From IMG/VR virus record IMGVR_UViG_2734482773_000003, positions 1 through 43,530 of that record: DNA of 43,530 bases; one strand, written 5' to 3'. The DNA comes from a virus. Taxonomy: Duplodnaviria; Heunggongvirae; Uroviricota; Caudoviricetes. Below the pieces are notes generated by a model. It saw nothing but the letters and a program-made list of their open reading frames with translations, did no database searches and was not told the origin of the DNA. The position numbers and the translations under genes were made by a program. Positions 5,692 to 43,530 of the stretch are shown one piece after another; within the stretch, counting starts at the first letter, position 1, and every line of letters begins with the position of its first letter.

Positions 5692-5761
5692 GGTTTCTCC
5701 TGAAATTTGGATGTGCAGATCCCGCCCGCGTAATGCCAGGCCGAACGGTTGAATAGGGTGG

Positions 5762-5971
5762 TTAGTGCTGGATAGGGTTGCCGTGACCGTCAAGAAGGAC
5801 GTCAATCACGCAGTCACTGAGTCGGATTATTTCTGCGTCAGTGTGCAGGTATACCCATTTGCGCTCCTGAATGACTGCTGAGACGCGATATGTGCGGCCT
5901 TCATGCAATGCCATCATGCCGGGCGTGACGCACTGGCGAATGAGCGGGGTGGTGTCGTAGTGGTTGATCAT
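5762..5971 (-). CDS. hypothetical small phage protein (69 aa)
   Basis: ATG at 5971 with GAGGTGAAGG upstream; ATGA overlap with the stop of the upstream gene. Confidence 0.45.
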   Translation of the reverse strand: MINHYDTTPLIRQCVTPGMMALHEGRTYRVSAVIQERKWVYLHTDAEIIRLSDCVIDVLLDGHGNPIQH

Positions 5972-6126
5972 GCCTTCACCTCAACCTGTTCCAGGAGGCC
6001 AGCCAGCTTCATATGCCAGCGGTTCATCGTCAGCTTTTCACGCGGGTTAGATACCGACGTCAGCTGCCACTCGTTATCGTTGAGCTTTTTGGCGGTGTAC
6101 TGCTTGCCGTTGTGGGTGACTGTCAT
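5968..6126 (-). CDS. hypothetical small phage protein (52 aa)
   Basis: ORF 5968..6168(-); internal ATG at 6126 with AAGGTGG 6 nt upstream; start adjacent to the stop of the upstream gene. Confidence 0.4.
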   Translation of the reverse strand: MTVTHNGKQYTAKKLNDNEWQLTSVSNPREKLTMNRWHMKLAGLLEQVEVKA

Positions 6127-6127
6127 C

Positions 6128-6337
6128 TCACACCACCTTGAATAAGAACCAGCCCATACCGCACACAATCAGGCCCACAATGGTTATTGCGGAAGACATG
6201 CGTACATGGTCAATGGCTAGTTTTGAAAGTGGCTGGCGATGTTCTTTTTTCGTCAGCGAGTTGATTGCTATGCCGAGCAGAAACGTCCCGACAAACCATA
6301 ATGCGTATATCTTTAAGCCCAACTCCAAATCACTCAT
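6128..6337 (-). CDS. small hydrophobic membrane protein (69 aa)
   Basis: ATG at 6337 with AGAGGA upstream; two predicted transmembrane stretches (LKIYALWFVGTFLLGIAI ... AITIVGLIVCGMGWFLF). Confidence 0.45.
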   Translation of the reverse strand: MSDLELGLKIYALWFVGTFLLGIAINSLTKKEHRQPLSKLAIDHVRMSSAITIVGLIVCGMGWFLFKVV

Positions 6338-6470
6338 AAATCCTCTTGGCCTTATCGCGGCGAACGGAACGGTTAATACAAGACTTCAACGCATTTATTC
6401 AGTGTTTCAATGGGCGGTGGATGGCCGCCGGTTGTCATAACTTGAGCCACTCGTAAATGACTCCAGGTAT

Positions 6471-6494
6471 GAAAAAGCCGCTGGTTAGGCGGCT
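6471..6494 (-). terminator. intrinsic terminator (minus strand)
   Basis: hairpin agccgc-tggttag-gcggct 6476..6494 followed on the minus strand by a U-run (A-run 6472..6476 on plus); overlaps the stop of the upstream gene. Confidence 0.45.
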
Positions 6495-6789
6495 ATTGAG
6501 GTTCGCGCGGCTTGTGGTCGAATCGGTGCCACCCGTCAGTTAATTCAAATGGAGCATAACTTTCCCGGCGCTCAGCGAACCCAAGCTCAACAGACAGAGC
6601 GTGCAGCTCATGCCGACGCTTAATCTGTTCCATCGCAATCCAGTCAGCATCGGCATTGCGCTTTTGAGCTTGCTTCGGCGACAGGTCTAAACTGTTTATT
6701 TCACTTAGTTTCTGCTGACGCTTGATGTCCTGTTTCATATTGCGAAGCGCATTTATCATTGAGTCGATGCGCTTGATGTCGTCGATCAT
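6493..6789 (-). CDS. hypothetical phage protein (98 aa)
   Basis: ORF 6493..6885(-); ATG at 6789 (MIDDIKRIDSMINALRNMKQ...); position corresponds to the kil/cIII region of lambdoid phages, but no sequence-based assignment. Confidence 0.45.
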   Translation of the reverse strand: MIDDIKRIDSMINALRNMKQDIKRQQKLSEINSLDLSPKQAQKRNADADWIAMEQIKRRHELHALSVELGFAERRESYAPFELTDGWHRFDHKPREPQ

Positions 6790-6978
6790 CCCCTTACCCT
6801 CTGTCGTTACCCGCTGATGCGGGAGAAATGCTTTGTGGTGCAGCGCCGGGTGCTTATCTTCCGGTTGCCGTCGATGCAGCTGCAATTCACTGCACTACAA
6901 AACATTCCAGTTATTGCCGGGGTATTTATCCGCGCCCGGCGCGCGCTTTCCCGCTATTCCCCAACAGCAAGAAATCGC

Positions 6979-7320
6979 TTACTCTTTAAGCTCCCCAACA
7001 GTAGAAAGGATATGTTCATGCAAACCATGCGGACCGTGTGCCCTGACTGCGGAAGTGAGATGTTCAACCAGCCCGATGATTTTGACTTTGAGACAAATTT
7101 CACCGGCGTCAGTTGTGCTGACTGTGGTCGCGAAATCACTAAGGACGATGTTGTCAATCAGGCCACGGACACGGTCAAAAAACAGATCGACGACATGCTC
7201 AGGAATTCCCTGAAAGGAGCTGGCTGGAAGTTCAAGTAACTTTAAAAGCTCCCCGGTCTGGGTAAGCACTTCGCTGGCGTCTACATTGAGCAGTAGTGGC
7301 GCCATTTTTTTATCTGACAT
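6979..7320 (-). CDS. hypothetical protein, first gene downstream of the pL-type region (113 aa)
   Basis: ATG at 7320 with GAGGGG 5 nt upstream; acidic protein, not arginine-rich like lambda N; overlaps antisense with the zinc-ribbon ORF 7018..7239(+). Confidence 0.35.
   Translation of the reverse strand: MSDKKMAPLLLNVDASEVLTQTGELLKLLELPASSFQGIPEHVVDLFFDRVRGLIDNIVLSDFATTVSTTDAGEICLKVKIIGLVEHLTSAVRAHGPHGLHEHILSTVGELKE
7018..7239 (+). CDS. small zinc-ribbon protein (74 aa), oppositely oriented in the leftward operon
   Basis: ATG at 7018 with AAGGA 7 nt upstream; CPDCG...(22 aa)...CADCG double CxxC motif; overlaps antisense with 6979..7320(-), so the two calls compete. Confidence 0.4.
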   Translation: MQTMRTVCPDCGSEMFNQPDDFDFETNFTGVSCADCGREITKDDVVNQATDTVKKQIDDMLRNSLKGAGWKFK

Positions 7321-7515
7321 ATACACCCCTCTGATTGTTTACCGTCAGCCCCTCGCAAAGAGCTGCTGGTAAATCGTTTAGCCATAATTGCCGCTCTTCC
7401 TGAGCCCGCCTATGGTCCGACGCATGGTTTACTGTCGCGCCGTTCGACTGACCGAATCTCCACTTCGCCGCTGGCTAACTTCGCTCAGCTGTCGATGTTT
7501 CGTTTCGATGGGGTG

Positions 7516-7560
7516 AATTTAGCGTGATGCTAAATTATGCGCAATAGCAAAATGCTAAAT
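7516..7560. promoter_or_regulatory. OL-type repressor operators (pL region)
   Basis: perfect palindrome aatttagc-gtgat-gctaaatt at 7516..7536 and tagca-aaa-tgcta at 7545..7557 (within 7544..7560); same TTTAGC/GCTAAA half-site as in the cI-cro intergenic region. Confidence 0.55.
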
Positions 7561-7630
7561 TGTTGAATGGTTTTATTTAGCGTATTGATTAATAAGCGAT
7601 TAAAAATTTACAGCGAAGGAATTCGGGACG

Positions 7631-7656
7631 TAAAAAAGCCCGCGCGATGGCGGGCT
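7631..7656 (-). terminator. intrinsic terminator downstream of the repressor gene
   Basis: hairpin agcccgc-gcgatg-gcgggct 7637..7656 followed on the minus strand by U6 (A-run 7632..7637 on plus). Confidence 0.55.
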
Positions 7657-7675
7657 TGAGGGGTTTTGCGTGAGG

Positions 7676-8353
7676 TTATGGGATGTTTAGTATTTTGGCA
7701 TCAACCACAACGCCGATGATTTTGCAGTTTCCATTAATTTCTAGCATTGGATATGCGGGGTTAAGGGGCTTTAGGAAGCGTCTGCCGGCATCGATTACAA
7801 GCTTCTTAAAGGTCGCTTCGTTATCGCCTTCTAGCTTCGCGACAACCAGCTTTCCGTTGCGCGGCTCGACTTCAGGATCAACAAGTATCGCTGCTCCCTC
7901 AGGTATGCTCAGTCCAGCCGGGGAGGTCATAGAATCCCCTTTAACGTCCAGCCAGAATGAATCTTCTGAGCAGTCAACAGTCGTGTCATACCAGCGATCT
8001 ATCGCTCTTCGGTGATAAGGTTCTACAGCTTCCATCCATTGCCCCGCGCTTACCCAGCTGATTACAGGATAACTTCCTTTTGTCTCGTTCAGTCCTCGAA
8101 ATGCAACGTTCGAAGGTTCTTCACTGGCGTGTAAAACATCCATCCAGCCAAAAGGCAGATCAAGCGCAGTTTCAATTTTGCGAGCCATCTTATCGCCGAT
8201 ATTGCGATGAGGGTTTGGTCCCAGTAGCTGGCTAAGCGCAGCCGGACTTGTCTCGATGAGCTCGGCAAACTGCGCTTTGGTCATTCCAGACTCGTGCTGA
8301 CGCTTCTCGTACAGCGCTTCCAGGTTGGCTTTTCTGATTTCTTTATTTTCCAT
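7676..8353 (-). CDS. cI: CI-like prophage repressor (HTH N-terminus plus S24 LexA-like autopeptidase C-terminus)
   Basis: ORF 7676..8470(-); ATG at 8353; N-terminal HTH (MTKAQFAELIETSPAALSQLL); C-terminal S24 motifs GDSM (Ser) and KLVV...K (Lys); divergent from the cro-like gene. Confidence 0.85.
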   Translation of the reverse strand: MENKEIRKANLEALYEKRQHESGMTKAQFAELIETSPAALSQLLGPNPHRNIGDKMARKIETALDLPFGWMDVLHASEEPSNVAFRGLNETKGSYPVISWVSAGQWMEAVEPYHRRAIDRWYDTTVDCSEDSFWLDVKGDSMTSPAGLSIPEGAAILVDPEVEPRNGKLVVAKLEGDNEATFKKLVIDAGRRFLKPLNPAYPMLEINGNCKIIGVVVDAKILNIP

Positions 8354-8371
8354 ACCTGCATTGTTACTGCT

Positions 8372-8439
8372 TTTAGCAAAATGATAAATGTGCAAATTGC
8401 TAAATGATGCTTGCGTAGTATTTAGCATAACGCTAAACT
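8372..8439. promoter_or_regulatory. OR-type operators with candidate pR promoter
   Basis: tttagc-aaaat-gataaa 8372..8388 and tttagc-ataac-gctaaa 8421..8437, plus a weaker site near 8388..8404; candidate rightward promoter TTGCGT (8411..8416) - 17 nt - TAAACT (8434..8439) overlapping the last operator. Confidence 0.55.
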
Positions 8440-8469
8440 CCAAATCAAACGACTCACCCGGAGACACCA

Positions 8470-8703
8470 ATGAGCACTGAACTACACCGCTGGCGCAAGG
8501 CCGCCACTACCGACGAATGGGCGCAGCTCGCAAAGTTGGCTAACACGACGCCAGGTTACCTGGACCAGATCGCCTACGGAAATCGCCGGGCATCTCCAGA
8601 AATGGCATCTGCTATCGAGAAAGGCACGAAGAATTTTCACCGCCAGGCTCCGGTCCTAAAAGAAAGCCTGGTATTCGCATCGCCGCGTGATACTGCGGCC
8701 TAA
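8470..8703 (+). CDS. cro: Cro-like HTH regulator (YdaS/Cro type)
   Basis: ATG 8470 with GGAG upstream; HTH-like segment EWAQLAKLANTTPGYLDQIAYGNRRASPEMASAIEKGT; first rightward gene divergent from cI. Confidence 0.7.
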   Translation: MSTELHRWRKAATTDEWAQLAKLANTTPGYLDQIAYGNRRASPEMASAIEKGTKNFHRQAPVLKESLVFASPRDTAA

Positions 8704-8720
8704 CCACGAAAGGGAAAGCA

Positions 8721-9263
8721 ATGCATTCACTTGCGTATCAACACAATACCGGAATACACCCGGGAGCGATGATAAACCGCGCTCAACCTAAGGCGGCGCC
8801 TGACCACGAAAAGATCCGCGATGCGGTCCGGGCATGGTCTTCGGCGCTGGACAATCAGGACGTCGTTTCGGCACTGATCATCAACGAATACCGGGAGCAG
8901 GGCGGGACCGCCATCAGCTTTCCTGACGACATCAGCCGTGCGCGCCAGAAGCTGTTCCGCTTCCTGGATAACCGTTTCGACTCCGAACAGTACCGCGAGA
9001 ACGTGCGCCAGCTGACACCCGCAATCATGTCCGTATTGCCGCTGGAGTACCGCAACCGCCTGGCGCCGCAGAACGACACGATGTCGCTGATCGCTTCTGC
9101 GATGAAAGAGTGTGCTGAAGCTAAACAGGCCGTGCTTTTGGACGCCCCAGAGCATCAGAAGCTGAAAGAGGTAAGCGAGGGTATAGCTTCGCTGTTCCGC
9201 CTCATGCCGGAGCAGGTAGGCCCACTGATGACGATGGTCACGTCGATGCTGGGGGTTATGTGA
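8721..9263 (+). CDS. YdaT-like regulatory protein (CII-position analogue)
   Basis: ATG 8721 with AAGGGA upstream; LTPAIMSVLPLEYRNRL region resembles Rac-prophage YdaT (from memory); sits immediately after cro. Confidence 0.55.
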   Translation: MHSLAYQHNTGIHPGAMINRAQPKAAPDHEKIRDAVRAWSSALDNQDVVSALIINEYREQGGTAISFPDDISRARQKLFRFLDNRFDSEQYRENVRQLTPAIMSVLPLEYRNRLAPQNDTMSLIASAMKECAEAKQAVLLDAPEHQKLKEVSEGIASLFRLMPEQVGPLMTMVTSMLGVM

Positions 9264-9352
9264 TGGGAAGTATCAAAAATGGCGAAAGCCAGTCTGCGCG
9301 AACAGAACTGGCCTTCAGATGCAAATCGTGTGCACTCATTGCAGGAGGAATA

Positions 9353-33062: not shown

Positions 33063-35993
33063 ATGGCAGGTGAGAAAAACGCCGGTAGCATCGTTTATGA
33101 AGTCAGCGCCAATATTGAGCCGCTGCTGCAGGGCGGTAAACAGGCCATTGATGCTCTGGATAAACTGGATGCTGCAGCCCAGCAGTCCGGGAAGGGAATG
33201 GATAACCTCGACCAGAGCACGTCTCAAACCGGATCCGCTTTTACTGAACTGGCTGGTTATGCCAATTCCATGGATAACCAGCTGCGCAAGCTGAACACCA
33301 ACGTGAGCGGAATTGCCCGCGCTATGGAAGAGGCCCGCAGCGGTACCGGCGGCGCGAGCAGTGAATTCAGTCGCGCAGAATCAATCATCGAGGCGCTGGG
33401 TAACCAGCTGGCTGTGCTGGACGAAGCGCAGGAGAATGGCGCGCGTAGTGCCGCGGTTCTGGCAGCCCAGCTCCGAGCCGGGTCAAAAGCTACAGACGAA
33501 GAGAAGCAGAAGATCGGCGAATTGACTGGGCGGCTCTTCGACATGAAAGGCGCTGCTGATACCTCGATGGGCAGTAATAAAGGCTGGAAGGCCAGCATGC
33601 AGCAGGCTGGTTATCAGGTTCAGGATTTCATAGTACAGGTGCAGGGCGGCCAGTCTGCGCTGGTGGCGTTCGCTCAGCAGGGGTCTCAACTCGCTGGTGC
33701 ATTCGGTCCCGGCGGCGCAGTCGTTGGTGCCATAATCGCGCTTGGTTCGGTGCTGGCTGGCGTGCTGATTACTTCGCTGAATGGCGGCAAGAATGCCATG
33801 GATGCGCTGAAAGACGCAGCTGAAGCGATGGATAAGGTTATCACCATTTCATCGCAAGGCGTGGCCGCGCTTTCCGACAAGTATGCTGCCCTGGCGCGCG
33901 TAAATGCCGACGTGGCTACTTTGCTGAGAAATCAGGCACTGCTCGAGTATAACCAGGCGATCTCAAAGATTCCTAAAGCCATTAGTGACGCGTCTGATGC
34001 TTTCATTACGTTAGGCGATCGCGCACTGGCGGCTGTTGGCGGTGCGTCTCCAAGCATCAAAAAGTTCAACGATGAGCTTTCTGCGCTTGGCGTTACCACA
34101 AATGACTGGAGCCAGGCCATTCAACAGGCCAACAGTCAGGGGCAATATGCCTCTGGCATTGTGAACTCTTTATCTTCAACGGTCAGCACGCTTTCTTCAC
34201 GCCTCGGCATCAGCAAGCAATCAGCGTTTGATCTTGCAAGAGAGTTATCAGACCTGAGCAACAACCCGTCGCCTGAAGCACTTCAGGAACTGGCGAAAAA
34301 GCTCCAGGAAATGAAGTCCTCCTCCAAAGATGGGCAGTCAGCCATTGCTGAGCTGGCTGGTAAACTTGTCGATCTGGCAAGAGAGGCAGCCAATGCGAAG
34401 ATCAATGTAGACAGCCTGAATAAGTCCACGGATAACCTTACCGCCGGACAGAAGAACCTGATCAAACAGTCCGAGCGCAACCTGGCACTCTCGAAGTTGC
34501 AGGGCGAGGCTCGCGCACGGTTGCAGGCGCAATACGCTGCCGAAGATGCTGGATTTGCGAAGGATGATCCGCATGCCAAGCAGATGGAAGATGATGCTGC
34601 CGCTACGTACAAAAATACGGAAGAGCAAAAGAAGCTTAAATCGGAGCAGAAAAAAGGAGCATCTCAGGCAGAAACCATTGCTCAGAAGCTGGCGAACCTG
34701 AAACAGCAGTCAGAACTCGCTGCCTATTCAACGAATAAGCTGAGCCGAGAGCAGGCTATTCTGAATGCGCAGCAGTCGCTCGGGAAAGGTGCCACCAAAG
34801 AGCAGATAGCACTTGCCGGTCAGTATGCGGCCAAAAAATGGGACACCGCCAACGCCATTAAGGCTCAGGCTGCAGCGGAGAAACTTCTTCCTGAGGCCCG
34901 CGAGAACGCCAGCTACAGGCAGGATGTTGAGGACCTGAATACCGCTCTGGCTGCGAAGAAAATCAGTCAGGAGCAGTTCAATCAGACATCCGAGCGACTG
35001 GAAGCAACTCACCAGGCCAACCTTGCGAAAATCCGTGCCGATCAGGCTGTCAGCCCACTGCAGGAAGCTGCTGGCGGTGTGGATCCGGTGCAGCAACTGG
35101 CGAATGAAAATGCCCGAAAACTCGCGCTTATTCAGGCTTACGAGCAGCAGGGGATTATTACTCACCAGAACGCGCTTATGCTGCGCGCATCAGCTGACAG
35201 GGAGTACGAGCAGGCTCGCATCGCGGCGCAATGGGAGATTTTCCGTAACCAGAGCGCAGGCAATGAAGCGCTGGCGGCGTCCTTTGATGCACTGGCCGGT
35301 AATGCGTCCAATGCCTTAACCGGCATCATCACCGGGAGCATGTCAGCTTCCGATGCTCTGCGCTCGATCGGGAATACCGTACTGAACAGCCTCATCAACA
35401 CCTTCGTCCAGATGGGCGTTGAGTGGGTTAAATCGGCAATCATGGGGCAGACGGCCACCACTGCAGCGGTTGCAGCATCTACCACGGCGCAGGCAGCAGG
35501 CATTGCCACTACCACGGCGACGTCTACCGCGGCGGCGGCGGCCACAACTGCAGCATGGACGCCAGCGGCCATCATGTCCTCCATTGCGTCATTCGGTGGA
35601 GCGGTGGCGATCGGCATCGGAGCTATGGCTGGCATCCTGGCACTGTCAGGAAAGCGTAAGAACGGCGGGCCGGTTAGTGCAAGCGGAATGTATCAGGTCG
35701 GCGAAGGTGGAATGCCGGAGATTTACCAGGCCAGCACCGGTAAGCAGTACATGATACCGGGCGACAACGGCAAGGTGATCAGCAACAAGGAAATGACTGC
35801 CGGAGGCGGTGGCGGGGTAATTTTGAATATCAACAATTACTCTTCAGCGTCGGTCGATGCACAGGCTACGCAGGGCAGTGACGGCACCTGGACTATCGAT
35901 ACATTCATCGCTGACATGAATAATGGTGGACCAGCAAGCCAGGCTATTACCAGCAATTTGAACGTTAAGCGCACGCCAAGGGGGCAGGGCTGA
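33063..35993 (+). CDS. tail tape measure protein
   Basis: 976 aa, largely alpha-helical Ala/Gln/Leu-rich with hydrophobic Gly/Ala segments; canonical position after the chaperone. Confidence 0.85.
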   Translation: MAGEKNAGSIVYEVSANIEPLLQGGKQAIDALDKLDAAAQQSGKGMDNLDQSTSQTGSAFTELAGYANSMDNQLRKLNTNVSGIARAMEEARSGTGGASSEFSRAESIIEALGNQLAVLDEAQENGARSAAVLAAQLRAGSKATDEEKQKIGELTGRLFDMKGAADTSMGSNKGWKASMQQAGYQVQDFIVQVQGGQSALVAFAQQGSQLAGAFGPGGAVVGAIIALGSVLAGVLITSLNGGKNAMDALKDAAEAMDKVITISSQGVAALSDKYAALARVNADVATLLRNQALLEYNQAISKIPKAISDASDAFITLGDRALAAVGGASPSIKKFNDELSALGVTTNDWSQAIQQANSQGQYASGIVNSLSSTVSTLSSRLGISKQSAFDLARELSDLSNNPSPEALQELAKKLQEMKSSSKDGQSAIAELAGKLVDLAREAANAKINVDSLNKSTDNLTAGQKNLIKQSERNLALSKLQGEARARLQAQYAAEDAGFAKDDPHAKQMEDDAAATYKNTEEQKKLKSEQKKGASQAETIAQKLANLKQQSELAAYSTNKLSREQAILNAQQSLGKGATKEQIALAGQYAAKKWDTANAIKAQAAAEKLLPEARENASYRQDVEDLNTALAAKKISQEQFNQTSERLEATHQANLAKIRADQAVSPLQEAAGGVDPVQQLANENARKLALIQAYEQQGIITHQNALMLRASADREYEQARIAAQWEIFRNQSAGNEALAASFDALAGNASNALTGIITGSMSASDALRSIGNTVLNSLINTFVQMGVEWVKSAIMGQTATTAAVAASTTAQAAGIATTTATSTAAAAATTAAWTPAAIMSSIASFGGAVAIGIGAMAGILALSGKRKNGGPVSASGMYQVGEGGMPEIYQASTGKQYMIPGDNGKVISNKEMTAGGGGGVILNINNYSSASVDAQATQGSDGTWTIDTFIADMNNGGPASQAITSNLNVKRTPRGQG

Positions 35994-36490
35994 TGCCAAT
36001 TATCGACTATCCCGACTGGCTTCCGCTGGCGCAGAAGGCCAGCAAAAATATGACGCTCGATACCGGGTTCCAGACCGACCAGCCAGCGGTCGGCCCGGCT
36101 ATCTTCCAGAACCTTACTCACGACCTGAAAGTGACATGGTCCCTGACATGGATCTTCACTCTGGACCAGGAGCGCGCTTTCCAGCAGTGGCTGCGCAGCC
36201 CGAACTATCTCAACCGGGGCCTGAACTGGTTCCGGATGAATATCAACCTTGGCGGTAGCGGTCTGCAGCTGCAGGAGCTTCACTTCACGCAGATGCCGGT
36301 GCAAACCAGTATTGACGGCGGTGTGGTGACCTGGACAGGGACAGTTATTGCGAACCACCTCTACAACGCCGACGACGAGTTCGACGACATCATTGTAGAG
36401 CTGCCGCCACCGTGGGATTCGTGGCTGGATATCGTGGTTACGGGTTATCCGGACAATAGAGACCCAGAATCACTTCCGAGGGTGCCGTAA
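35993..36490 (+). CDS. minor tail protein
   Basis: 165 aa, ATG overlapping the tape-measure stop; position of lambda M-type distal tail genes. Confidence 0.5.
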   Translation: MPIIDYPDWLPLAQKASKNMTLDTGFQTDQPAVGPAIFQNLTHDLKVTWSLTWIFTLDQERAFQQWLRSPNYLNRGLNWFRMNINLGGSGLQLQELHFTQMPVQTSIDGGVVTWTGTVIANHLYNADDEFDDIIVELPPPWDSWLDIVVTGYPDNRDPESLPRVP

Positions 36491-36960
36491 TGCAGAGCTT
36501 CAGGGAGTACAAGCAGCAACGGCCGACGCGTGGGCTGTACGATACCATTACTTTCTACCATCCATCCTTTGGCTACATCCACCTGGTCGATAAGCAGTTC
36601 TTTCCGAAGACGCTCGGCGGCCAGACGTACACGCCCGCGCGCTTTGAAATCGAGGAGAGTCAGCAGAGCGGCACGCCGGTAATCGACGCGACGGTGAAGT
36701 TAGGGCGGCTTTCGTCGGACATCAAAGCGCTGATGAAGCAGTGGAAGGGCGCGGCCCGGCTGACGGCCATCACGGCCACAAGGCAGATCTTCGACAGCGG
36801 GGACGTGTCTGTGCCGATTAAGTCCTGGCAGTTATACGTCAAGACAGTGGACATCGATGCTGACTCCGCGTCAGTAACCCTGTCCGTCACCAACCCGCTG
36901 AACAACAACATCGGAAGGCTCTATGACCCAACGGAATATACCGGCCTGCAGTACCTCTGA
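36490..36960 (+). CDS. minor tail protein
   Basis: 156 aa, start overlapping the upstream stop. Confidence 0.5.
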   Translation: MQSFREYKQQRPTRGLYDTITFYHPSFGYIHLVDKQFFPKTLGGQTYTPARFEIEESQQSGTPVIDATVKLGRLSSDIKALMKQWKGAARLTAITATRQIFDSGDVSVPIKSWQLYVKTVDIDADSASVTLSVTNPLNNNIGRLYDPTEYTGLQYL

Positions 36961-37339
36961 TTTTGTTCGGAAGGTGATCGGCGTGCCATGGGCTAACCGG
37001 GCCTGTTCGTTCGAGAAGTTGGATTGCTGGGGGCTGGTGGTGCTGTATTACCGGCACGTTCTCGGCATTGAACTGCACCAGACGCCGGACTACGAAGCCG
37101 GTGAGGATTTCTTCACCTGCTATCAGGGAGACGTCGTTTTCTGGCGCAAGCTCGATAAACCGGTCGATGGCGGGATATTCGTCGGGTACCGCGGCGCGCA
37201 ACCTGCGCATGTTGGCCTGGTACTGAACCGGCAGGCGCTGCACTCGCGCGGCGAGAACGGAAGCGTGCGCATGGACTCGTTGCTGGTCATTCAGCGGGCA
37301 TTCACCAAAGTGGAGTTTTTCGAATATGGCGTTGATTGA
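36923..37339 (+). CDS. NlpC/P60-family tail protein (lambda K-like cysteine peptidase domain)
   Basis: catalytic-type Cys in LDCWGLVVLYY and His in AHVGLVL; position after the minor tail genes. Confidence 0.6.
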   Translation: MTQRNIPACSTSDFVRKVIGVPWANRACSFEKLDCWGLVVLYYRHVLGIELHQTPDYEAGEDFFTCYQGDVVFWRKLDKPVDGGIFVGYRGAQPAHVGLVLNRQALHSRGENGSVRMDSLLVIQRAFTKVEFFEYGVD

Positions 37340-39803
37340 GCTTCAGCGTTTCCCGGGGACGCCAAAAGAACGCTACAGGGTGCCAAACGGCACCCTTTTT
37401 TATGACTGGCTGGTGGCAAATGACGCTACCTTTCACCGCGATCTGCTGATTGTCCGGAACGGCGTAAAGCTTTGTGATGATGACGAGCTGGCGTTTGAGC
37501 TGAGCGAACTGGACAACATCCAGATTTTCGACCAGCCAAAGGGCATTGTCAGTGACATCCTGAGCCCGATTTTCAAAGTTGTCGGGTCTGTATTTTCTTT
37601 TCTGGCGCCTAAGCCGGCAATCGCAAATACCGGTGGTAACACTGTCGACTCGCCAAACAATAGCCTGACCGGTCAGACAAACACCGCGCGCGTCTATAAA
37701 GCCAAACCGGACATATACGGGCAGGTGCGTTCTTTCCCAGACCTGATTCAGGAATCACTGTTTGAGTACATCAGCACTGGCGTGCGAGACGGTGGCAAGA
37801 AGTACGTGACGGAATGGATGTGTATCGGGATTGGCAAGTACAATTATGAGTCTGTGCGCTACTCAGAATCGAGCCTTGGAAGCATGGCCGGAGCCGAATA
37901 CCAGTTCATTCAGCCTGGCGAGGTAATCCCGTCGATTAACGAAGGCTACAGCTTCGATGACGTCGATGGGCAGGAAGTCCCGGGTGCGAACCAGGGCGAA
38001 TCGTTCCCTGTTGAAACCGCTACAGCCAACACAGTGGTCAGCGGCACGTATGCCGGCGGTCAGATAGCGGTGAAAATCGTTAAACAGGCGGAATTTGACT
38101 ATTTCATGGGCCTGGTATTGCCGCATGCCGTCTCGTTCGACATAAACGTCACTTACGCGACTGCCTCTGGTTCGGTAACTACTGACGCCACGTTCTCCGG
38201 CACGCTTGTTTCAGCTGTAGAGACAAACGACGGCGCGGTGATAAACCCAGTCCGCTGGTACACCTTCACCATGGGCGACCTGGATGGCCCGCCAGATATC
38301 CCCGCTACCGCAACGATCAACACGACGAAGTTCGTGCTGAACGACAACGAAGCGCTGGTCGTAGGTCCGTTCTTTTCTCCGGTTGAATCAACGCAGTTGT
38401 GGATCCATACCCAAAGTAGCCTCGGTCCGAAGAAGCAGACCAACTGGAAGGTGGTGCTTTGGAAAATTGATGACGACTACAACATGATCCCTGGCACTCA
38501 GCAGACGCTGGTGTTCAAGCAGACAACCTGGCACAAGCAGGATAGCGAGACATTCTATCGGACCGACAAGATAGTGCCGACTGGCGGCTTCGGGAAGTAC
38601 GCCATTAACCTGCAGCGCACCGATAACTCTGGTGATGCGTCGATACTCAAACTTGAGGAAATCCACGCCGTAAACGTGCGAACAAACGTTGTCCATCCAA
38701 CCGATACGCTGGTGCGCGTGAAGGTTAGGGCTACAGAGAACGCGCTGGGCAGCCGCGACCGCAAATACAACGCCCTGGTAACGCGGCACACCATCACGTA
38801 CGATCTGGACACGCAGACGGTAGATTACACGCTGCGTCCGTCGCGTTCATTCGCTGATGCAGTGGCTCACACATGGCTGATTATGGGTGAGCAGCCCGTA
38901 AGCAGCATTGACCTGTATGGGTTGTATTCGATCGCCGAAAGCCTGCCTGATGAGCGCCTTGGTTACTTCGACTATACCTTTGATGATGAGAACGACTCTC
39001 TGGGAGACCGCGTGCAGGCGATCTGCAATGCGGCATCTGTGGTGGCGTACTGGGACGACGGTGTGCTCACGTTTACCCGCGATCAGAAAGTTGACTACCC
39101 GGCGGCGGTATTCAACCGGGCCAACATGAAGACTGACGAGTACAAAATGACGTACGAAGCTACTCTTCCGGGCGGTTATGACGGCGTTCAGGTGTCATAC
39201 GTCCACCCCACAACGAACAACAAGACGTACATCAACTACCGGGTTCTGAACGGCGCCATCGTTGAGCAGGAAGCGGAAAACCCGAACAAGCTGGAGATAG
39301 TCGGCTTCCGTAACGAGTACCAGGCCCCAGAACGAGCTCTGCGAGAAACCAAGCGCCTGATTTACTCTCGGGTGAAGATGAACGCCAAAGTGTTTGAGGA
39401 CGGCATTATCCAGGTCGGTAGCGTCATTCAGATGCCCGACATCTACGACAGCAACCAGCAACAGGGTTACATCACCGGGCGCGCCGGTAATAACTTTGAT
39501 ACCAGCGAGCCGATCACGTTTACCGGTTCGATGTATGTGCTGGTGACAGACAGCCTGGGTAACCCGACACTGCGCTATCCAGCGGCTGCGCGTGGCGACA
39601 CGAAGTACGGATTCACTGCGGCTATCCCCAACATTCAGCTCAATATCTGGAACGGAGACACTGTGCAGCTCCCGTCCCGCTACCTCATCGCGACCGTTGA
39701 GGAACTGGACAGTCAGCTATGGACGGTCAACAGCATCAAACCTAACACAGATAACACCGTATCTCTGACAGTCGCTGAATACAGCGACGCCATCTACCAA
39801 TAA
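37326..39803 (+). CDS. tail tip / host-specificity protein (I/J-position)
   Basis: 825 aa, overlapping start with the upstream gene; position of the central tail fibre/tip assembly genes. Confidence 0.6.
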   Translation: MALIELQRFPGTPKERYRVPNGTLFYDWLVANDATFHRDLLIVRNGVKLCDDDELAFELSELDNIQIFDQPKGIVSDILSPIFKVVGSVFSFLAPKPAIANTGGNTVDSPNNSLTGQTNTARVYKAKPDIYGQVRSFPDLIQESLFEYISTGVRDGGKKYVTEWMCIGIGKYNYESVRYSESSLGSMAGAEYQFIQPGEVIPSINEGYSFDDVDGQEVPGANQGESFPVETATANTVVSGTYAGGQIAVKIVKQAEFDYFMGLVLPHAVSFDINVTYATASGSVTTDATFSGTLVSAVETNDGAVINPVRWYTFTMGDLDGPPDIPATATINTTKFVLNDNEALVVGPFFSPVESTQLWIHTQSSLGPKKQTNWKVVLWKIDDDYNMIPGTQQTLVFKQTTWHKQDSETFYRTDKIVPTGGFGKYAINLQRTDNSGDASILKLEEIHAVNVRTNVVHPTDTLVRVKVRATENALGSRDRKYNALVTRHTITYDLDTQTVDYTLRPSRSFADAVAHTWLIMGEQPVSSIDLYGLYSIAESLPDERLGYFDYTFDDENDSLGDRVQAICNAASVVAYWDDGVLTFTRDQKVDYPAAVFNRANMKTDEYKMTYEATLPGGYDGVQVSYVHPTTNNKTYINYRVLNGAIVEQEAENPNKLEIVGFRNEYQAPERALRETKRLIYSRVKMNAKVFEDGIIQVGSVIQMPDIYDSNQQQGYITGRAGNNFDTSEPITFTGSMYVLVTDSLGNPTLRYPAAARGDTKYGFTAAIPNIQLNIWNGDTVQLPSRYLIATVEELDSQLWTVNSIKPNTDNTVSLTVAEYSDAIYQ

Positions 39804-39825
39804 GAACCGCCCCCGACCAACCAGA

Positions 39826-39850
39826 CCCGGCCGCCGCGCCGGGTTTTTTT
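39826..39850 (+). terminator. intrinsic terminator between tail-tip and tail-fibre genes
   Basis: hairpin cccggc-cgccgc-gccggg 39826..39843 followed by ttttttt. Confidence 0.55.
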
Positions 39851-39861
39851 ATGGAATCAAT

Positions 39862-41730
39862 ATGGCTACGACACCTACCAATCTTCCTGTTCCAAGTGAA
39901 TCACCGCGCGATCTGAAATTTAACGCCGGAAAAATAGACGAGTTTGTAACCTCAGGAAATCATGTTTATGTTGACAGGTTCGGCGATGAACATCGTACAA
40001 TTGCTGGCATAAATTACGATGCAAATCAGGCAATGCTGAATTATGGCTACATCACGAAGAAGTCTTTTGAAATTGGCGCTACCCTCGACACTCCTAACAC
40101 TGTTCTTCAGTGGGAGAGCAATGGCGAATACTACCGCTGGGATGGGGACTGGTCACAGCCCAAAGTAGTTCCCGCTGGTTCTACGCCTGATAGTACCGGT
40201 GGAATTGGGGAAGGGAAATGGGTTGGAGTAGGAGATGCTTCATTAAGGTCTGATTTGGCTGGTGCCGGTGGTTCAGATATGATCGGGACACCTAATGGAA
40301 CTGTGGAAGAAAGGCTTAATCAACTAAAGGATAAGGATGAAGATTTAGGGAAAAAGATAGTAACAACTATCATTCCATGTCCTACACCAACAATCGATAA
40401 TGGTGTAAAGGCTGTTGTGAAATCATCATCTGATGATGATTTTTATATTATCTCTAAAAGAGCCAATGGTAAGTCTGGCTTTATCGCTTTGCGCGTAACC
40501 AATGACGTATCAGTTTCTGATGCGAGCAACTACGGTGGTGCATCACCATTCCGTCCTGGATCTGTTGAGCGAGTGAGAGATGCGATTTATGCGAAGTTAG
40601 CTCCATCCACTAAATCATCTGGTGTTACTTTATCAACCCTAACTGCATCACAAATCGCAACACTTTATGGATTTACAGCAACCGGAAGTTCTATCAACGC
40701 AGTGACTGCAAGTGGCGATTTTTCGCTTATAAGCCCACAGGTATATAACGTTCCTAATGGCGAATCTGTTGTTTATAAGCTTGAAATGTCGAATAAAGCT
40801 ACAATTCGGCTTGGATGCTCTAATGGTGCTTCTACAACTGTAAATATAAGCATCAGTCGAGATGGAACTAACTGGCTTCTTCAGAAAACAGTTAACACAC
40901 AACTTCCTCCATCAGGTCTTGGTCCGCTACCTCTTGATATTGAAGTGAATGGTCTAAGTGGTGTTTGGTATGTTCGTGTATCAAATGGGCACGCCAACCC
41001 TCTGTATCTTGTCGGTCTGAATATTGGCTATATTGGTTCTGATAAAATATATGACTATGATGCATTCATTGCAACGATAGAGCCTGATTTGAGTACTGGA
41101 CCTTCATATTATTTCGGAGGTAATGGAGCTACAGAATTTGCAGCGAAAGAATTATCTACTGGTAAATTCTTCGGAACATTCCATGGTGGTCATAGTAATT
41201 TTCTTCAAAGATTAAGAACCGAATCAGCTTCTTATAACCTGGATAGCTCCACTGCACCAACTCTCTTGCTTACGAAGAATGCCACTTTACACAGCGCTTC
41301 TCTTATCACGGTGCAGTCATCAACATATAACTATGTGGCGTCAACACAGTTTGGTGATGGTGTGACTATCACTAATTTCGCACTTCAGAAGCAATCCGGA
41401 GAGGCAATTTTATGTGAGCGAATTTATACGCACATGGCAACATCTGCGCGAAACTTCGACTGGATACACCTTCCTGTTCTTCTGAATAAGACGGATGATG
41501 GGTATGTTCAGGTTGGTCAGTGCGGATTTATACAGCAATTCAGATCAGACGATGCGGCTTACGTTAACTGCTACTTTTCGCAAGTCAACGTCTCTGAAAA
41601 CGGCTATGGAGGGGCTTATGTTTCCTTCCAAAATAACTATAACAAGCAGTATTATGGGTCAGTATTTTCTTCTTCAGTAGGGGTTCCTCTTTCTGACGGC
41701 TCCTACACAACATGTAAAGAGTTTTTCTGA
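39862..41730 (+). CDS. tail fibre / tailspike protein with conserved N-terminal anchor and divergent AT-rich C-terminal receptor-binding region
   Basis: 622 aa; composition drops to AT-rich after roughly the first 150 codons; Ser/Thr/Asn/Gly/Tyr-rich C-terminus typical of beta-structured receptor-binding/depolymerase domains. Confidence 0.65.
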   Translation: MATTPTNLPVPSESPRDLKFNAGKIDEFVTSGNHVYVDRFGDEHRTIAGINYDANQAMLNYGYITKKSFEIGATLDTPNTVLQWESNGEYYRWDGDWSQPKVVPAGSTPDSTGGIGEGKWVGVGDASLRSDLAGAGGSDMIGTPNGTVEERLNQLKDKDEDLGKKIVTTIIPCPTPTIDNGVKAVVKSSSDDDFYIISKRANGKSGFIALRVTNDVSVSDASNYGGASPFRPGSVERVRDAIYAKLAPSTKSSGVTLSTLTASQIATLYGFTATGSSINAVTASGDFSLISPQVYNVPNGESVVYKLEMSNKATIRLGCSNGASTTVNISISRDGTNWLLQKTVNTQLPPSGLGPLPLDIEVNGLSGVWYVRVSNGHANPLYLVGLNIGYIGSDKIYDYDAFIATIEPDLSTGPSYYFGGNGATEFAAKELSTGKFFGTFHGGHSNFLQRLRTESASYNLDSSTAPTLLLTKNATLHSASLITVQSSTYNYVASTQFGDGVTITNFALQKQSGEAILCERIYTHMATSARNFDWIHLPVLLNKTDDGYVQVGQCGFIQQFRSDDAAYVNCYFSQVNVSENGYGGAYVSFQNNYNKQYYGSVFSSSVGVPLSDGSYTTCKEFF

Positions 41731-41749
41731 TACCCAAGGCTTGGAGAAT

Positions 41750-41773
41750 GGGCAAGGCCGCAATGCCTTGCCC
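41750..41773. terminator. hairpin between convergent tail-fibre and acyltransferase genes (possible bidirectional terminator)
   Basis: gggcaaggc-cgcaat-gccttgccc 41750..41773; no strong U-tract on either strand. Confidence 0.35.
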
Positions 41774-41798
41774 ATATCCTGTTATGAATCAGCAGAGG

Positions 41799-42908
41799 CT
41801 AAATTGCTGGTTTTCTTGTCTTGATTAAATTACCTGCCATATCAACCAAATATTTTCTTAATGCCAAGATAGCAAGGTTTATAATAATAGGGATAACAAT
41901 GCCTGCAACGATATAAACAGGCCAGTACAAAGGATCTGAAAAGTGCGACAAAGCCTTAGCTTTCCCTATTTCATACATTCCCATCCAGCCGAAAATAATA
42001 TCCAACAAAATGAATGCAAGTAAGTGGAAAGACATAATGCATTTGCTTTCCCTCCCTATGTAGAGAATGGTTTTCGACTTTATTGCTTTAGATAGCATGC
42101 AGGATAAGGAAAATACTATATATGAGCAAAGTAATATTTGAACATAAGTCAGCAAAAATCCATGCTTGTAGTTACTCCATGAAACCCCTATATCTCCGCT
42201 TAGCCCCAGTCGGCGCATAGTAATAACCAATAAAAACGCCAAGCACATCCAAAGCAAAGAAGGTGATTTAAATATCAAATCCTTAAATGTTTTTCCTATC
42301 AACATAAAGGCAAGCGCAAAGAGGATTTGAGAACCATAGTTATTTAATATATTCCATTCAGATTTGTATGCCACAGCAAGATAATCGATGGAAACCCAAC
42401 CACATGCTATGATAGTCAGAACGGATAAAATACTTTTCGCGGTTCTATTTAAATGTTTTGTTATGCGCAGATAGCAATATAGAAGGATGGATGCCATTGC
42501 ATATGCGAAAAGAAACCATGATACTAAAAATAAAAAACTAATATGCATATTAGTATTCAAAAAGTAAATGGCATAATCATAGATAGAGCTCTGAGCTTTA
42601 TATAGCCCTGAAATTCCAGTGCTCTCTTGTATAAGATATGAAACTAGCAATAAAAACATATCCACAATTACTATATAAAAAAAGAACTTTCTGATTATTA
42701 TACTAAGGAATTGTAGAGGGTTTTTATTCTCGTTAAATACAATTCCTCCAATCATGAAAAATAGAGGCATATGATACATATACGGCGTCATAACATTAAA
42801 TATGTTATTTGAGTAGTGCCCTATAACGACAACAATAATTCCAAGAGCCTTTGCATAATCAATAGCAGCTCTCCTGTATTGCTGATCATCATTGCTAATC
42901 GTATTCAT
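41799..42908 (-). CDS. acyltransferase-3 family integral membrane protein (putative O-antigen/polysaccharide O-acetyltransferase; lysogenic-conversion candidate)
   Basis: 369 aa with about 10 predicted TM helices; N-terminal RAAIDYAKALGIIVVVIGHY matches the acyltransferase-3 start motif; strongly AT-rich; AGGGTG upstream of ATG 42908; convergent with the tail fibre. Confidence 0.7.
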   Translation of the reverse strand: MNTISNDDQQYRRAAIDYAKALGIIVVVIGHYSNNIFNVMTPYMYHMPLFFMIGGIVFNENKNPLQFLSIIIRKFFFYIVIVDMFLLLVSYLIQESTGISGLYKAQSSIYDYAIYFLNTNMHISFLFLVSWFLFAYAMASILLYCYLRITKHLNRTAKSILSVLTIIACGWVSIDYLAVAYKSEWNILNNYGSQILFALAFMLIGKTFKDLIFKSPSLLWMCLAFLLVITMRRLGLSGDIGVSWSNYKHGFLLTYVQILLCSYIVFSLSCMLSKAIKSKTILYIGRESKCIMSFHLLAFILLDIIFGWMGMYEIGKAKALSHFSDPLYWPVYIVAGIVIPIIINLAILALRKYLVDMAGNLIKTRKPAI

Positions 42909-43183
42909 TCTTCACCCTGCGTAGTTCATTTCACGAATCATTCTGTAGGGATACACGTCGCATCACTACTGACGGCACCGTCACATGAAGCATGATAACT
43001 GCGTAATCAGATCGTGATTAACGCGTTATTGTCAAAAGGATGCGACAGCATACCCGAAGGTAGTTTTTCGATCGAGTAAATCGTTAGTAAGAACAGACGT
43101 CCATAGCAAAAATAAACGCTAAAACATCAACAGCCTATAAATTTCAATCCCTCTAAAACTTGATCAAAGTTAGCTCTTGTGTG

Positions 43184-43203
43184 TACTGTATATATATACA
43201 GTT
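43184..43203 (+). promoter_or_regulatory. LexA (SOS) box overlapping a candidate promoter
   Basis: tactgtatatatatacagtt contains CTGT-(AT)4-ACAG, the LexA-box consensus; candidate -35 TTGATC at 43161..43166 with -10 inside the box. Confidence 0.6.
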
Positions 43204-43224
43204 TTTGTTGTCCTGAGGATGATT

Positions 43225-43530
43225 ATGCAGACAGGGGATAAACGATACAAGCTCGAGCATTTATGTGGGGTTAGCCACTCTTCCTGTCTGGTTGAAACTT
43301 CAGGTGGATACGCGCTTTTTCAGCCTGAACTTGTGCCCACCAACGGAACACGCGTGCTGGTGCATGCGTTCGGACAACTACAGTTCGCGGTCGTTATGGG
43401 CGGTGCGCTCATCACCGAAGACGGTGAAAGCATAGAGGGAGATGCTTTAGATGAAGTCGATGTCATGGGAGTTGTGACCTTTTTTATCAGTGGCGCTGCG
43501 GCGTTCACAGACGACAATCCGGTGATGTGA
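43225..43530 (+). CDS. SOS-regulated small protein of unknown function (101 aa)
   Basis: ORF 43177..43530; ATG 43225 with GAGGA 5 nt upstream, about 22 nt downstream of the LexA box; stop at 43528..43530. Confidence 0.45.
   Translation: MQTGDKRYKLEHLCGVSHSSCLVETSGGYALFQPELVPTNGTRVLVHAFGQLQFAVVMGGALITEDGESIEGDALDEVDVMGVVTFFISGAAAFTDDNPVM

Follow-up and report, generated by a model that had tools for sequence, protein, structure and literature searches.

The tailspike gene at 39,862..41,730 (+ strand) most probably encodes a mosaic protein in which an anchor of the Sf11 type is joined to an exchangeable, glycan-recognising C-terminal module, with new modules acquired by cassette swapping and the gene transcribed by read-through from upstream. 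We put the probability of this reading, taken as a whole, at roughly three in four. The gene lies in a window of 43,530 nucleotides (the whole stretch of DNA analysed here) and is an intact open reading frame that begins with ATG and encodes 622 amino acids. Its product, entered as the exact protein (P0001) in the protein collection used here, is 100% identical to WP_240755362.1 of Escherichia coli A14, and the source of the window is a temperate Cobrasixvirus-like siphophage integrated in that strain, with the open reading frame as its tailspike. WP_240755362.1 is annotated in RefSeq as a "head-binding protein", but identity as a P22 head-binding tailspike was rejected because PF09008 is absent from the protein; the label probably stems from relatives of the C-terminal module that do carry PF09008. 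A Pfam scan of the tailspike returned nothing besides PF18668 (no PF09008, SGNH/GDSL, or Aldose_epim), and an NCBIfam scan of the tailspike, the neighbouring acyltransferase, and the umuD-like open reading frame gave zero matches.

The N-terminal anchor is made up of residues 1 to 135 (39,862..40,266, + strand) and includes the Tail_spike_N domain PF18668 at residues 64 to 125 (40,051..40,236, + strand), which scores 66.9 bits in Pfam against a gathering threshold of 25. By phmmer against the PDB, residues 1 to 155 match gp13, the tailspike of Shigella siphophage Sf11, with an E-value of 2.4e-50, and sequence comparison identifies residues 1 to about 160 as a widely shared anchor. The Sf11 virion carries six tailspike trimers on its tail tip; the N-terminal helices of gp13 span residues 4 to 59, and three of them form a bundle with gp17's adaptor helix, which is acidic (E129, E136, E147, and E152), while R16 and K19 of gp13 form salt bridges (PMC12724387). 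R16 and K19 are identical between gp13 and the window tailspike. They lie in a near-invariant 5' end, codons 1 to 31 (39,862..39,954, + strand; MATTPTNLPVPSESPRDLKFNAGKIDEFVTS), whose residues are almost unchanged across six relatives and which forms part of a conserved left flank.

The likely docking partner of the anchor is a distal tail protein of 165 amino acids encoded at 35,993..36,490 (+ strand), which matches Sf11 gp17 (9occ_C) over residues 1 to 150 with an E-value of 8.6e-64 (phmmer against the PDB). The docking interface is conserved in part only, because of the gp17 adaptor-helix residues E129 and E136 are kept, while E147 is replaced by Ile and residues 138 to 140 read PPP; E152 falls outside the alignment. 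Between this gene and the tailspike lie a homologue of baseplate hub 1 (36,490..36,960, + strand; 156 amino acids), which matches Sf11 gp16 (9occ_F) over residues 1 to 154 with an E-value of 1.6e-44, and a baseplate hub 2 or TipJ-family tail tip protein (37,326..39,803, + strand; 825 amino acids), which matches Sf11 gp14 (9occ_E) over its full length with an E-value of 1.3e-253. The latter also matches phrog_469 "tail protein" (E 3.6e-250) and is named "host specificity factor TipJ family" in RefSeq. Sf11 (PDB 9OCC) thus resembles the phage described here in its homologous anchor, in a hinge at about residues 160 to 165, and in having the distal tail, hub 1, and hub 2 genes upstream of the tailspike. 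The two differ in the distal tail protein, which has 457 amino acids in Sf11 and lacks the large C-terminal appendage here, and in what follows the hinge, described as Sf6/P22-like in gp13 and predicted as an all-β, non-helix module in the window tailspike. Other PF18668 tailspikes, including TSP1, TSP3, and TSP4 of CBA120 and those of Escherichia, Salmonella, and Shigella siphophages, also have receptor-binding parts unlike this one. O-antigen is used for entry by the Sf11 tailspike (PMC12724387), and by analogy with that homologue a role of the window tailspike in host range is plausible.

The junction between anchor and module falls at a predicted helix, residues 148 to 166, and a hinge at residues 165 to 167 (40,303..40,359, + strand), where the pLDDT of the AlphaFold2 model drops below 50 at the end of the helix. 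The hinge of Sf11 gp13 is near residue 162 (PMC12724387), and in alignments the conserved part of the C-terminal module begins at about residues 168 to 170.

Modular tailspikes are textbook knowledge, and a mosaic as such is ordinary. An earlier note on this DNA had proposed a conserved anchor with a swappable C-terminal receptor region, and homology, rather than composition, bears this out. Compared domain by domain, the two parts of the protein have separate distributions: 469 cultured-phage records match the anchor (residues 1 to about 146), none of which covers 80% of the protein, while the C-terminal module is matched in 3 phage records only. The module is found behind at least four other types of Pfam N-terminal domain. 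Its relatives carry PF18668, PF09008, PF12571, PF18454, or no recognisable Pfam domain at their N-termini, and the domains that precede it elsewhere include those of the P22 head-binding, tail-collar-fibre, and Mtd types, among others. PF09008 is present in the relatives P0008 to P0010. One of them, P0010, is a P22-like prophage tailspike of 615 amino acids from E. coli: its C-terminal module is 60% identical over the full length, whereas it begins, unlike the window anchor, with a Head_binding domain of P22 (PF09008, E 8e-66), and it sits among the podovirus genes gp16, Mnt/Arc, and Ant. In sister E. coli prophages, protein alignments follow the same anchor to about residue 130, after which come GDSL-esterase or β-helix proteins. 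The mosaic reading is supported because the module sits on other N-termini and the anchor carries other modules.

Nucleotide comparisons place the edges of the exchange. Identity to a prophage of Enterobacter hormaechei is 81% at 39,846-39,935, 49 to 62% at 39,936-40,205, 69 to 87% at 40,206-41,735, and 98 to 100% from 41,736 onward, and homology to CobraSix extends from the TipJ gene across the upstream hairpin as far as 39,953 and restarts at 43,244. Vertical inheritance of one fibre gene that has simply diverged faster toward its C-terminus is extremely improbable. The internal GC breakpoint described below is not significant, as such a gene would have it, yet the module stands behind unrelated N-termini, including a P22 head-binding domain in a P22-like prophage, unrelated GDSL and β-helix modules are fused to the same anchor, and identity to the E. 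hormaechei relative steps rather than grades. Under the mosaic reading, the cassette would be replaced by recombination in conserved flanks and at the hinge, with the 3' end of the TipJ gene, the hairpin, and the first 30 codons acting as the left flank and the umuD-like gene as the right.

The base composition of the gene tells a different story from the one expected. A shift in composition had been claimed after about 150 codons, but the internal break is not significant (p ~0.18). Codons 1 to 150 have a GC of 0.473 and a GC3 of 0.387, codons 171 to 622 have values of 0.415 and 0.310, and the best internal breakpoint, at 40,293, has a log-likelihood ratio of 3.1. A within-gene GC breakpoint was rejected as evidence of mosaicism because codon and nucleotide shuffles reach the observed value (104 of 500 and about 18%, respectively). 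What had caught the eye is probably a local contrast between 40,150-40,299 (GC 0.51) and 40,300-40,449 (GC 0.33), which reflects amino acid content, since a stretch rich in Gly, Ala, and Pro gives way there to a helical linker rich in Lys, Asp, and Glu. In binary segmentation of 35,000..43,530, the first break falls at 39,844, the start of the gene, with a log-likelihood ratio of 102. From 0.544 (37,300-39,843), GC passes to 0.427 (39,844-41,799), then to 0.27 to 0.40 across the acyltransferase segment, before rising again to 0.53 from 43,265; GC3 is 0.673 in the TipJ-like gene upstream versus 0.327 in the tailspike gene. With the break at the gene start, the whole tailspike gene, anchor included, therefore belongs to a 3.4-kb low-GC island together with the next gene.

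Upstream of the gene, a hairpin resembling an intrinsic terminator was found by consensus scan at 39,823..39,850 (+ strand), in agreement with a terminator noted earlier at 39,826..39,850. It is made up of a G+C-rich stem of 9 pairs, 6 of them G-C, followed by seven T, and has a predicted free energy of -17.1 kcal/mol with a z-score of only -1.7 against shuffles. Comparison of six relatives, phages and prophages, shows an unchanged T-run, a variable loop, and a stem that differs only by a single G-C to G-U replacement. The earlier suggestion that the hairpin gives the gene independent expression fared less well. The T-run ends 11 nucleotides before the ATG, a gap too short for a promoter and an argument for read-through, and a scan of the + strand from 38,500 to 40,254 found no promoter-like sites. 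A tailspike expressed as a unit of its own, insulated by the terminator from the tail genes upstream, would make sense of a conserved hairpin with its run of seven T, but we regard it as improbable: in addition to the short gap and the empty scan, any promoter farther upstream would still face read-through of the hairpin, the predicted stability of which is unexceptional. More probably, the tailspike gene would be transcribed by read-through of the conserved hairpin and have no promoter of its own.

The C-terminal receptor module is made up of residues 168 to 622 (40,363..41,727, + strand) and is predicted to be all-β with no β-helix. The AlphaFold2 monomer model, which was built from 27 sequences, has an overall pLDDT of 83, which exceeds 90 over most of the module. 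A depolymerase fold of the β-helix type had been expected, but the predicted structure is all-β and Foldseek returned no β-helix; a tailspike of the P22/Sf6/HK620 type was rejected for want of a parallel β-helix domain. The closest solved folds are those of GH174, PL26, and PL4, with CBM6/35/32-like matches for a probable CBM6/35-like β-sandwich at about residues 290 to 395 (40,729..41,046, + strand; boundaries approximate and inferred). The predicted β-supersandwich is shared with the galactose mutarotase/aldose 1-epimerase superfamily, although the Pfam domain Aldose_epim is absent. When folded alone, residues 396 to 622 gave a pLDDT of 44, unusable for fold search, which suggests that the fold also draws on strands from residues 170 to 290 or that the 12 sequences were too few. 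Domain boundaries are uncertain because these C-terminal 227 residues fold poorly by themselves.

The nearest structural neighbours of the module come from GH174, a family of glycoside hydrolases that dates from 2023. The GH174 catalytic-domain fold is shared with the predicted module, but its sequence is not: the module has no sequence match to GH174 even at an E-value of 10, and the 5 to 11% identity to the endo-α-1,3-L-fucanases (PDB 9K1G and 8JD7) makes this a fold-level likeness only. GH174 enzymes are soluble proteins from marine bacteria that act on sulfated fucans. In Fun174A, a GH174 enzyme, the critical residues are D119, E120, and E218 (PMC11943901). When PDB sequences were searched with one profile for the full protein and another for the module, the anchor alone was recovered; the module had no meaningful match, its best being to a 115-residue phage gp30 at an E-value of 0.0096. 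In the literature covered, mostly outside subscription journals, no prior account of a phage tailspike with a galactose-mutarotase or supersandwich fold was found. The module is, in sum, a confidently predicted, non-β-helix domain that has no sequence match in Pfam, NCBIfam, or the PDB; it contains a polar motif under strict conservation, and tail anchors of five or more kinds carry it.

Two signatures stand out in the module, one at residues 420 to 452 (41,119..41,217, + strand; GGNGATEFAAKELSTGKFFGTFHGGHSNFLQRLR), a candidate active or ligand site, and a second, YNKQYYG, at residues 593 to 599 (41,638..41,658, + strand). E425, H441, H444, and R450 are invariant in the alignment of 27 sequences. 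In a set of 92 distant relatives with 17 to 30% identity, H441 and G442 are conserved in 100%, G443, A427, and K595 in 98%, Y597 in 97%, and Y593 in 80%. Position 425, Glu in the window protein, is Asp in 85% of the 92, and position 444, His in the clade of the window protein, is Glu in 86%; because of this difference at position 444, the chemistry may differ in the window clade. H441, K595, Y597, the acidic residue at 425, Glu/His 444, and Q559, a strictly conserved set, are the candidate active-site residues.

The module probably recognises a polysaccharide on the cell surface, O-antigen being the likeliest, for which it would use the CBM6/35-like sandwich together with the galactose-mutarotase/GH174-like β-supersandwich, and it probably also cleaves the polysaccharide it recognises. 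A bolder reading, to which we give a little under even odds, is that the module represents a hitherto undescribed family of phage glycan-degrading enzymes, in which a CBM6/35-like sandwich is inserted into a galactose-mutarotase/GH174-like β-supersandwich. His441, Lys595, and Tyr597 would then act in catalysis with the acidic residue at 425, through a lyase-like or an unusual hydrolase mechanism. Alternatively, the module may be a lectin-like receptor binder that attaches to a surface glycan or protein without cleaving or modifying it. Mutarotase-like domains have an accessory role in β-galactosidases and in GH36 and GH38 enzymes; such domains are often non-catalytic parts of glycosidases, CBM6/35/32-like sandwiches are binding modules, and by sequence the module matches no CAZy-type Pfam family or solved enzyme. 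We nevertheless consider a pure binder somewhat unlikely, as binding residues should vary with the receptor, yet the polar set of His, Lys, Tyr, and acid keeps 85 to 100% conservation even in relatives as distant as 17% identity and in hosts that range from Escherichia to Aeromonas, and the closest solved folds, GH174, PL26, and PL4, use the fold catalytically.

It is also conceivable, though very improbable, that the module is an esterase or deacetylase that modifies polysaccharide rather than a glycanase, as the SGNH tail proteins of sister prophages would be. GDSL/SGNH proteins do occupy the same slot in those prophages, temperate phages commonly have SGNH receptor-binding proteins (PMC13123978), and an acyltransferase gene adjoins the tailspike. 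However, the module has no SGNH/GDSL match in Pfam, its predicted fold is all-β rather than the α/β of SGNH hydrolases, and its main body matched no esterase fold; 6hh9 and 6hfz, the only esterases among the structural matches, align over about 140 to 170 columns, alongside CBM matches. Phage G7C, with its SGNH deacetylase gp63.1, and Klebsiella prophages, with their SGNH tail proteins (PMC13123978), likewise have receptor modules without a pectate-lyase-like β-helix. Proteins of the gp63.1 type have an SGNH domain and the window tailspike does not; the fold, and probably the chemistry, differ from those of the module.

Downstream of the tailspike, and convergent with it, lies a gene for an Acyl_transf_3 membrane acyltransferase of 369 amino acids (41,799..42,908, - strand; Pfam PF01757, E 3.8e-15). 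Its GC is 0.34, and it belongs to the same low-GC island as the tailspike. Between the two genes is a strong hairpin with an 11-bp perfect stem (41,748..41,775); folding of 41,728-41,830 gives -39.6 kcal/mol with a z-score of -3.8, and 0 of 200 shuffles were as stable. Every related prophage examined for which there is downstream sequence has its own convergent Acyl_transf_3 gene at this position, at 16 to 33% mutual identity, while the window acyltransferase has no match among 50,697 phage records at an E-value of 1e-5. The arrangement is like that of tailspikes paired with prophage O-antigen acyltransferases, as for Sf6 Oac and BTP1 GtrC (PMC4413052), with a tailspike beside a membrane acyltransferase at the end of the prophage of a temperate phage. 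The acyltransferase probably modifies a surface polysaccharide, and in lysogens this would probably be the glycan that the tailspike module recognises. A single travelling unit made up of the acyltransferase and the C-terminal module was rejected by discordant identities. In a Citrobacter relative the module is 66% identical and the acyltransferase 17%; in the E. hormaechei relative the acyltransferase is 99% identical while the tailspike is 82% identical (about 76% at the nucleotide level). The E. hormaechei identity steps sharply at the stop codon, at 41,736, and the hairpin lies near the start of the 98 to 100% identical segment. These comparisons indicate that the recent history of the acyltransferase is separate from that of the tailspike.

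Searching by peptide pattern gave 1 locus with the module among 185,579 species genomes and 6 in IMG/VR; these counts depend on exact peptide patterns and are lower bounds, but they are consistent with a rare module. The locus offers a clean natural case of cassette exchange at defined junctions, namely the first 30 codons, the hinge, and the stop codon, and these would be useful for the design of chimeric tailspikes on the Sf11-type tail, whose structure now exists. Phage depolymerases serve in serotyping, in biofilm and capsule removal, and in host-range engineering. Should the module prove to be an enzyme, these depolymerases would gain a fold class, and the screens of prophages now in use, which look for β-helix depolymerases, would miss the module. 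The tailspikes of phages would then have a further depolymerase class beside the β-helix, β-propeller, and SGNH types, carried on anchors of siphovirus, podovirus, and myovirus type.

The tailspike gene is an intact ORF of 622 aa at 39862..41730 on the + strand, beginning with ATG at the position proposed in the earlier note. It lies at the right end of a prophage: nucleotides 39500-43530 are 100% identical to the chromosome of E. coli A14 (NZ_CP028760.1; a strain from opossum faeces, Mexico), in which the prophage adjoins yciB, yciC, and ompW. Over the structural genes, nucleotide identity is ~87% to the Enterobacter phages CobraSix, ENT1, and BHUENT3/6 (genus Cobrasixvirus), whose backbone the prophage shares; genes for a CI-like repressor and a DnaB helicase are also present. 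Upstream of the tailspike, the tail genes run from the tape measure protein (33063..35993) through the distal tail protein (35993..36490, + strand), a 156-aa protein (36490..36960), and an NlpC/P60 protein (36923..37339) to an 825-aa TipJ-family protein (37326..39803). A TnpB-like ORF of 386 aa (341..1501, - strand) with OrfB_IS605 and Cas12f1-like TNB domains precedes the repressor gene, close to the window's left end. At the right end, a umuD-like ORF without a Pfam match (43177..43530, + strand) continues past the window and is followed in E. coli A14 by a Y-family DNA polymerase gene and yciB. CobraSix likewise has a umuDC-like pair at this end, and the equivalent of the umuD-like ORF in the sister E. 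coli prophages examined is annotated as S24 peptidase or UmuD.

The only Pfam match of the tailspike is Tail_spike_N (PF18668; residues 64-125, 66.9 bits against a cut-off of 25 bits). Residues 1 to ~146 match 469 cultured-phage records at no more than 66% identity, mostly phages of Salmonella, Escherichia, and Klebsiella; the best of these have ~45-48-kb genomes and are annotated as tail fibre or tailspike, and none of the 469 covers 80% of the protein. The best solved relative of this N-terminal anchor is gp13, the tailspike of the Shigella siphophage Sf11 (PDB 9OCC; E 2.4e-50, residues 1-155). Residues 4-59 of Sf11 gp13 are helices, three of which form a bundle with a single adaptor helix from gp17, the distal tail protein, and a gp17 hexamer carries six tailspike trimers, or 18 copies (PMC12724387). 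Salt bridges join tailspike R16 and K19 to gp17 E129, E136, E147, and E152, the tailspike has its hinge close to residue 162, and entry of Sf11 depends on O-antigen (PMC12724387). Both R16 and K19 are kept in our tailspike when it is aligned to gp13, and its AlphaFold2 model has a helix at 148-166 whose end lies in a low-confidence stretch at 165-167. In the distal tail protein encoded here, E129 and E136 are kept and E147 is not, and the adaptor-helix region contains a PPP insertion at 138-140. This protein is only 165 aa long and matches the first 150 residues of the 457-aa gp17 (E 8.6e-64), lacking its 290-residue C-terminal appendage of unknown function. As homologues of gp16 (the 156-aa protein, E 1.6e-44) and gp14 (the TipJ-family protein, E 1.3e-253) are also encoded upstream and R16 and K19 are retained, it is a well-founded expectation from these alignments that the anchor attaches to the distal tail protein through a partly conserved interface.

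The remainder of the protein has a different set of relatives. When residues 151-622 were used as a query, 29 proteins were recovered with 34-100% identity across the whole module, from Escherichia, Enterobacter, Citrobacter, Siccibacter, Providencia, Aeromonas, and Symbiopectobacterium. Conservation begins at about residues 168-170 (IIPCPTPTI) and extends to the last residue, while the N-termini cannot be aligned; these are of the Tail_spike_N, P22 Head_binding (E 8e-66), PF12571 (tail-collar fibre N-terminal domain), Mtd_N, or weak BppL_N type, or have no Pfam match. The gene for one E. coli relative has gp16, Mnt/Arc, and Ant as neighbours, as is typical of a P22-like late region. RefSeq names our protein a head-binding protein (WP_240755362.1), but the P22 Head_binding domain PF09008 is absent from it, and the name probably spread from P22-like relatives having only the C-terminal module in common. 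Conversely, sister E. coli prophages share the TipJ gene, the intergenic hairpin, and the anchor up to GVGDASLRS (~residue 130), after which come 861-aa GDSL esterases or a 678-aa β-helix protein. By these comparisons, the C-module has evolved as a unit of its own; the pairing of an Sf11-type anchor with an exchangeable receptor module is an architecture already known in kind. In the sister prophage of E. coli HL15 (5362..9286 of locus L006), an IS3-family insertion splits the tailspike gene, so that the anchor survives as a 364-aa fragment apart from an SGNH/GDSL ORF. In the truncated sister prophage of E. coli XJ5.2 (1468..2124 of locus L004), the quinolone-resistance gene qnrS1 and an IS3 remnant immediately precede the genes for the NlpC/P60 protein, TipJ, and the tailspike.

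Against an E. hormaechei prophage, which is the closest relative, nucleotide identity rises and falls in steps along the locus: 70-100% in the TipJ gene, 81% at 39846-39935, 49-62% at 39936-40205, 69-87% at 40206-41735 (~76% for the tailspike overall), 98-100% at 41736-43175, and 90-96% beyond 43175. At least four segments of differing history therefore meet within 4 kb, with junctions near codons 25-31, near codons 115-130 towards the hinge, and at the stop codon. The mosaic of anchor and receptor module claimed in the earlier note is thus borne out by stepwise identity and by module reshuffling, but not by composition. The composition change that it placed after ~150 codons is present only as a small drop (GC 0.473 in codons 1-150 vs 0.415 in codons 171-622; GC3 0.387 vs 0.310), and the best internal breakpoint is not significant, being reached by 104 of 500 codon shuffles and ~18% of nucleotide shuffles. 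A local fall in GC from 0.51 to 0.33 near 40300 lies where a Gly/Ala/Pro-rich stretch gives way to a Lys/Asp/Glu-rich linker. Within 35000-43530 the main break is at 39844, just 5' of the start codon (LLR 102), with GC of 0.544 before it and 0.427 after it (GC3 0.673 and 0.327); backbone composition is regained at 43265. These limits nearly coincide with those of CobraSix nucleotide homology, which stops at 39953 and restarts at 43244, so the compositional outlier is the entire tailspike gene together with the gene after it rather than the C-terminal part of the tailspike.

That next gene encodes a 369-aa Acyl_transf_3 membrane protein (41799..42908, - strand, GC 0.34). A convergent Acyl_transf_3 gene follows the tailspike directly in all related prophages examined with downstream sequence (loci L003-L007 and L010), whether the tailspike module is a GDSL esterase, a β-helix, or the C-module described here, and the proteins in this slot are only 16-33% identical to each other. 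CobraSix, in contrast, has an unrelated forward ORF there, and none of 50,697 cultured-phage records matches our acyltransferase. In the E. hormaechei relative the acyltransferase is 99% identical and the tailspike 82%; the near-identical segment, 41736..43175, is 1.44 kb long, holds the acyltransferase gene and its flanks, and begins with a sharp step at the tailspike stop codon. It looks like a recently exchanged moron, and exchange of the acyltransferase is uncoupled from that of the tailspike module. On the model of Sf6 Oac and BTP1 GtrC (PMC4413052), the enzyme probably modifies the receptor glycan in lysogens. The occurrence of esterase tailspikes beside acyltransferases in sister prophages is an intriguing pairing.

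The hairpin upstream of the tailspike was confirmed at 39826..39850. Its stem (ACCCGGC/GCCGGGT) is followed by T7, and it is kept in CobraSix and four E. coli prophages with an invariant T-run, a variable loop, and a stem unchanged save for one G-C to G-U substitution; its predicted stability is unremarkable (z -1.7). Independent expression of the tailspike, suggested earlier on the basis of this hairpin, is unlikely. The T-run ends at 39850, leaving 11 nt to the ATG, and a scan found no promoter-like site on the + strand upstream of the gene, so transcription of the tailspike would have to rely on read-through, whether partial or through antitermination. Possible roles of the hairpin are to adjust expression or to stabilise the mRNA upstream of it. 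The convergent tailspike and acyltransferase genes are separated by a second hairpin (41748..41775), which is much stronger (region z -3.8) and has a perfect G+C-rich 11-bp stem with no good T-run on either side; it may terminate transcription in both directions or stabilise RNA. The left boundary of the near-identical segment is nearby, with the identity step at ~41736.

The C-module belongs to a rare family, for which we found no description in the sources that could be searched. A profile search returned 210 cluster representatives at E ≤1e-3 among 1.84 billion, 34 of them at 1e-30 or better; most of the matches listed reach or approach the protein C-terminus, with N-terminal extensions of ~0 to ~480 residues. 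Only three of the 50,697 cultured-phage records contain it (Aeromonas phages PhAER-3 and PhAER-4 and Vibrio phage vB_VpM-PP270), and pattern scans found at least one locus in the species-genome set and at least six in IMG/VR. Across 92 relatives of 17-30% identity, the best-kept positions are H441 (100%), K595 (98%), and Y597 (97%), along with G442, G443, A427, G438, P538, N387, Q559, and Y593. At two positions our protein departs from the majority of these relatives, with Glu at 425 (Asp in 85%) and His at 444 (Glu in 86%). Because this His/Lys/Tyr/acid constellation is kept while the rest drifts, across hosts likely differing in surface glycans, it is a candidate catalytic or core sugar-binding site rather than a set of specificity contacts.

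The module sequence has no match in Pfam or NCBIfam and none that is meaningful in the PDB, although the middle part of distant relatives has weak CBM_35 and DUF6805 matches. From 27 sequences, AlphaFold2 predicts an all-β module of long antiparallel strands, with model pLDDT averaging 83 and exceeding 90 across most of residues 171-520. Domain boundaries are approximate, as the last 227 residues, folded alone, are not confident. Foldseek matches in the PDB are β- and α-galactosidases and CBM6/35/32 (target-normalised TM 0.5-0.6), with no β-helix, a fold for which the earlier note proposed to look; in BFVD, the matches with the highest query-normalised TM (0.36-0.37, 12% identity) are to an unnamed protein of 669 aa and to the tail fibre of a Pseudoalteromonas phage. 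The GH174 fold is unusual among glycoside hydrolases and dominated by β-sheet (PMC12534559). Together, the predicted GH174/mutarotase-like, non-β-helix fold and the conserved polar motif point to a putative new structural class of tailspike enzyme.
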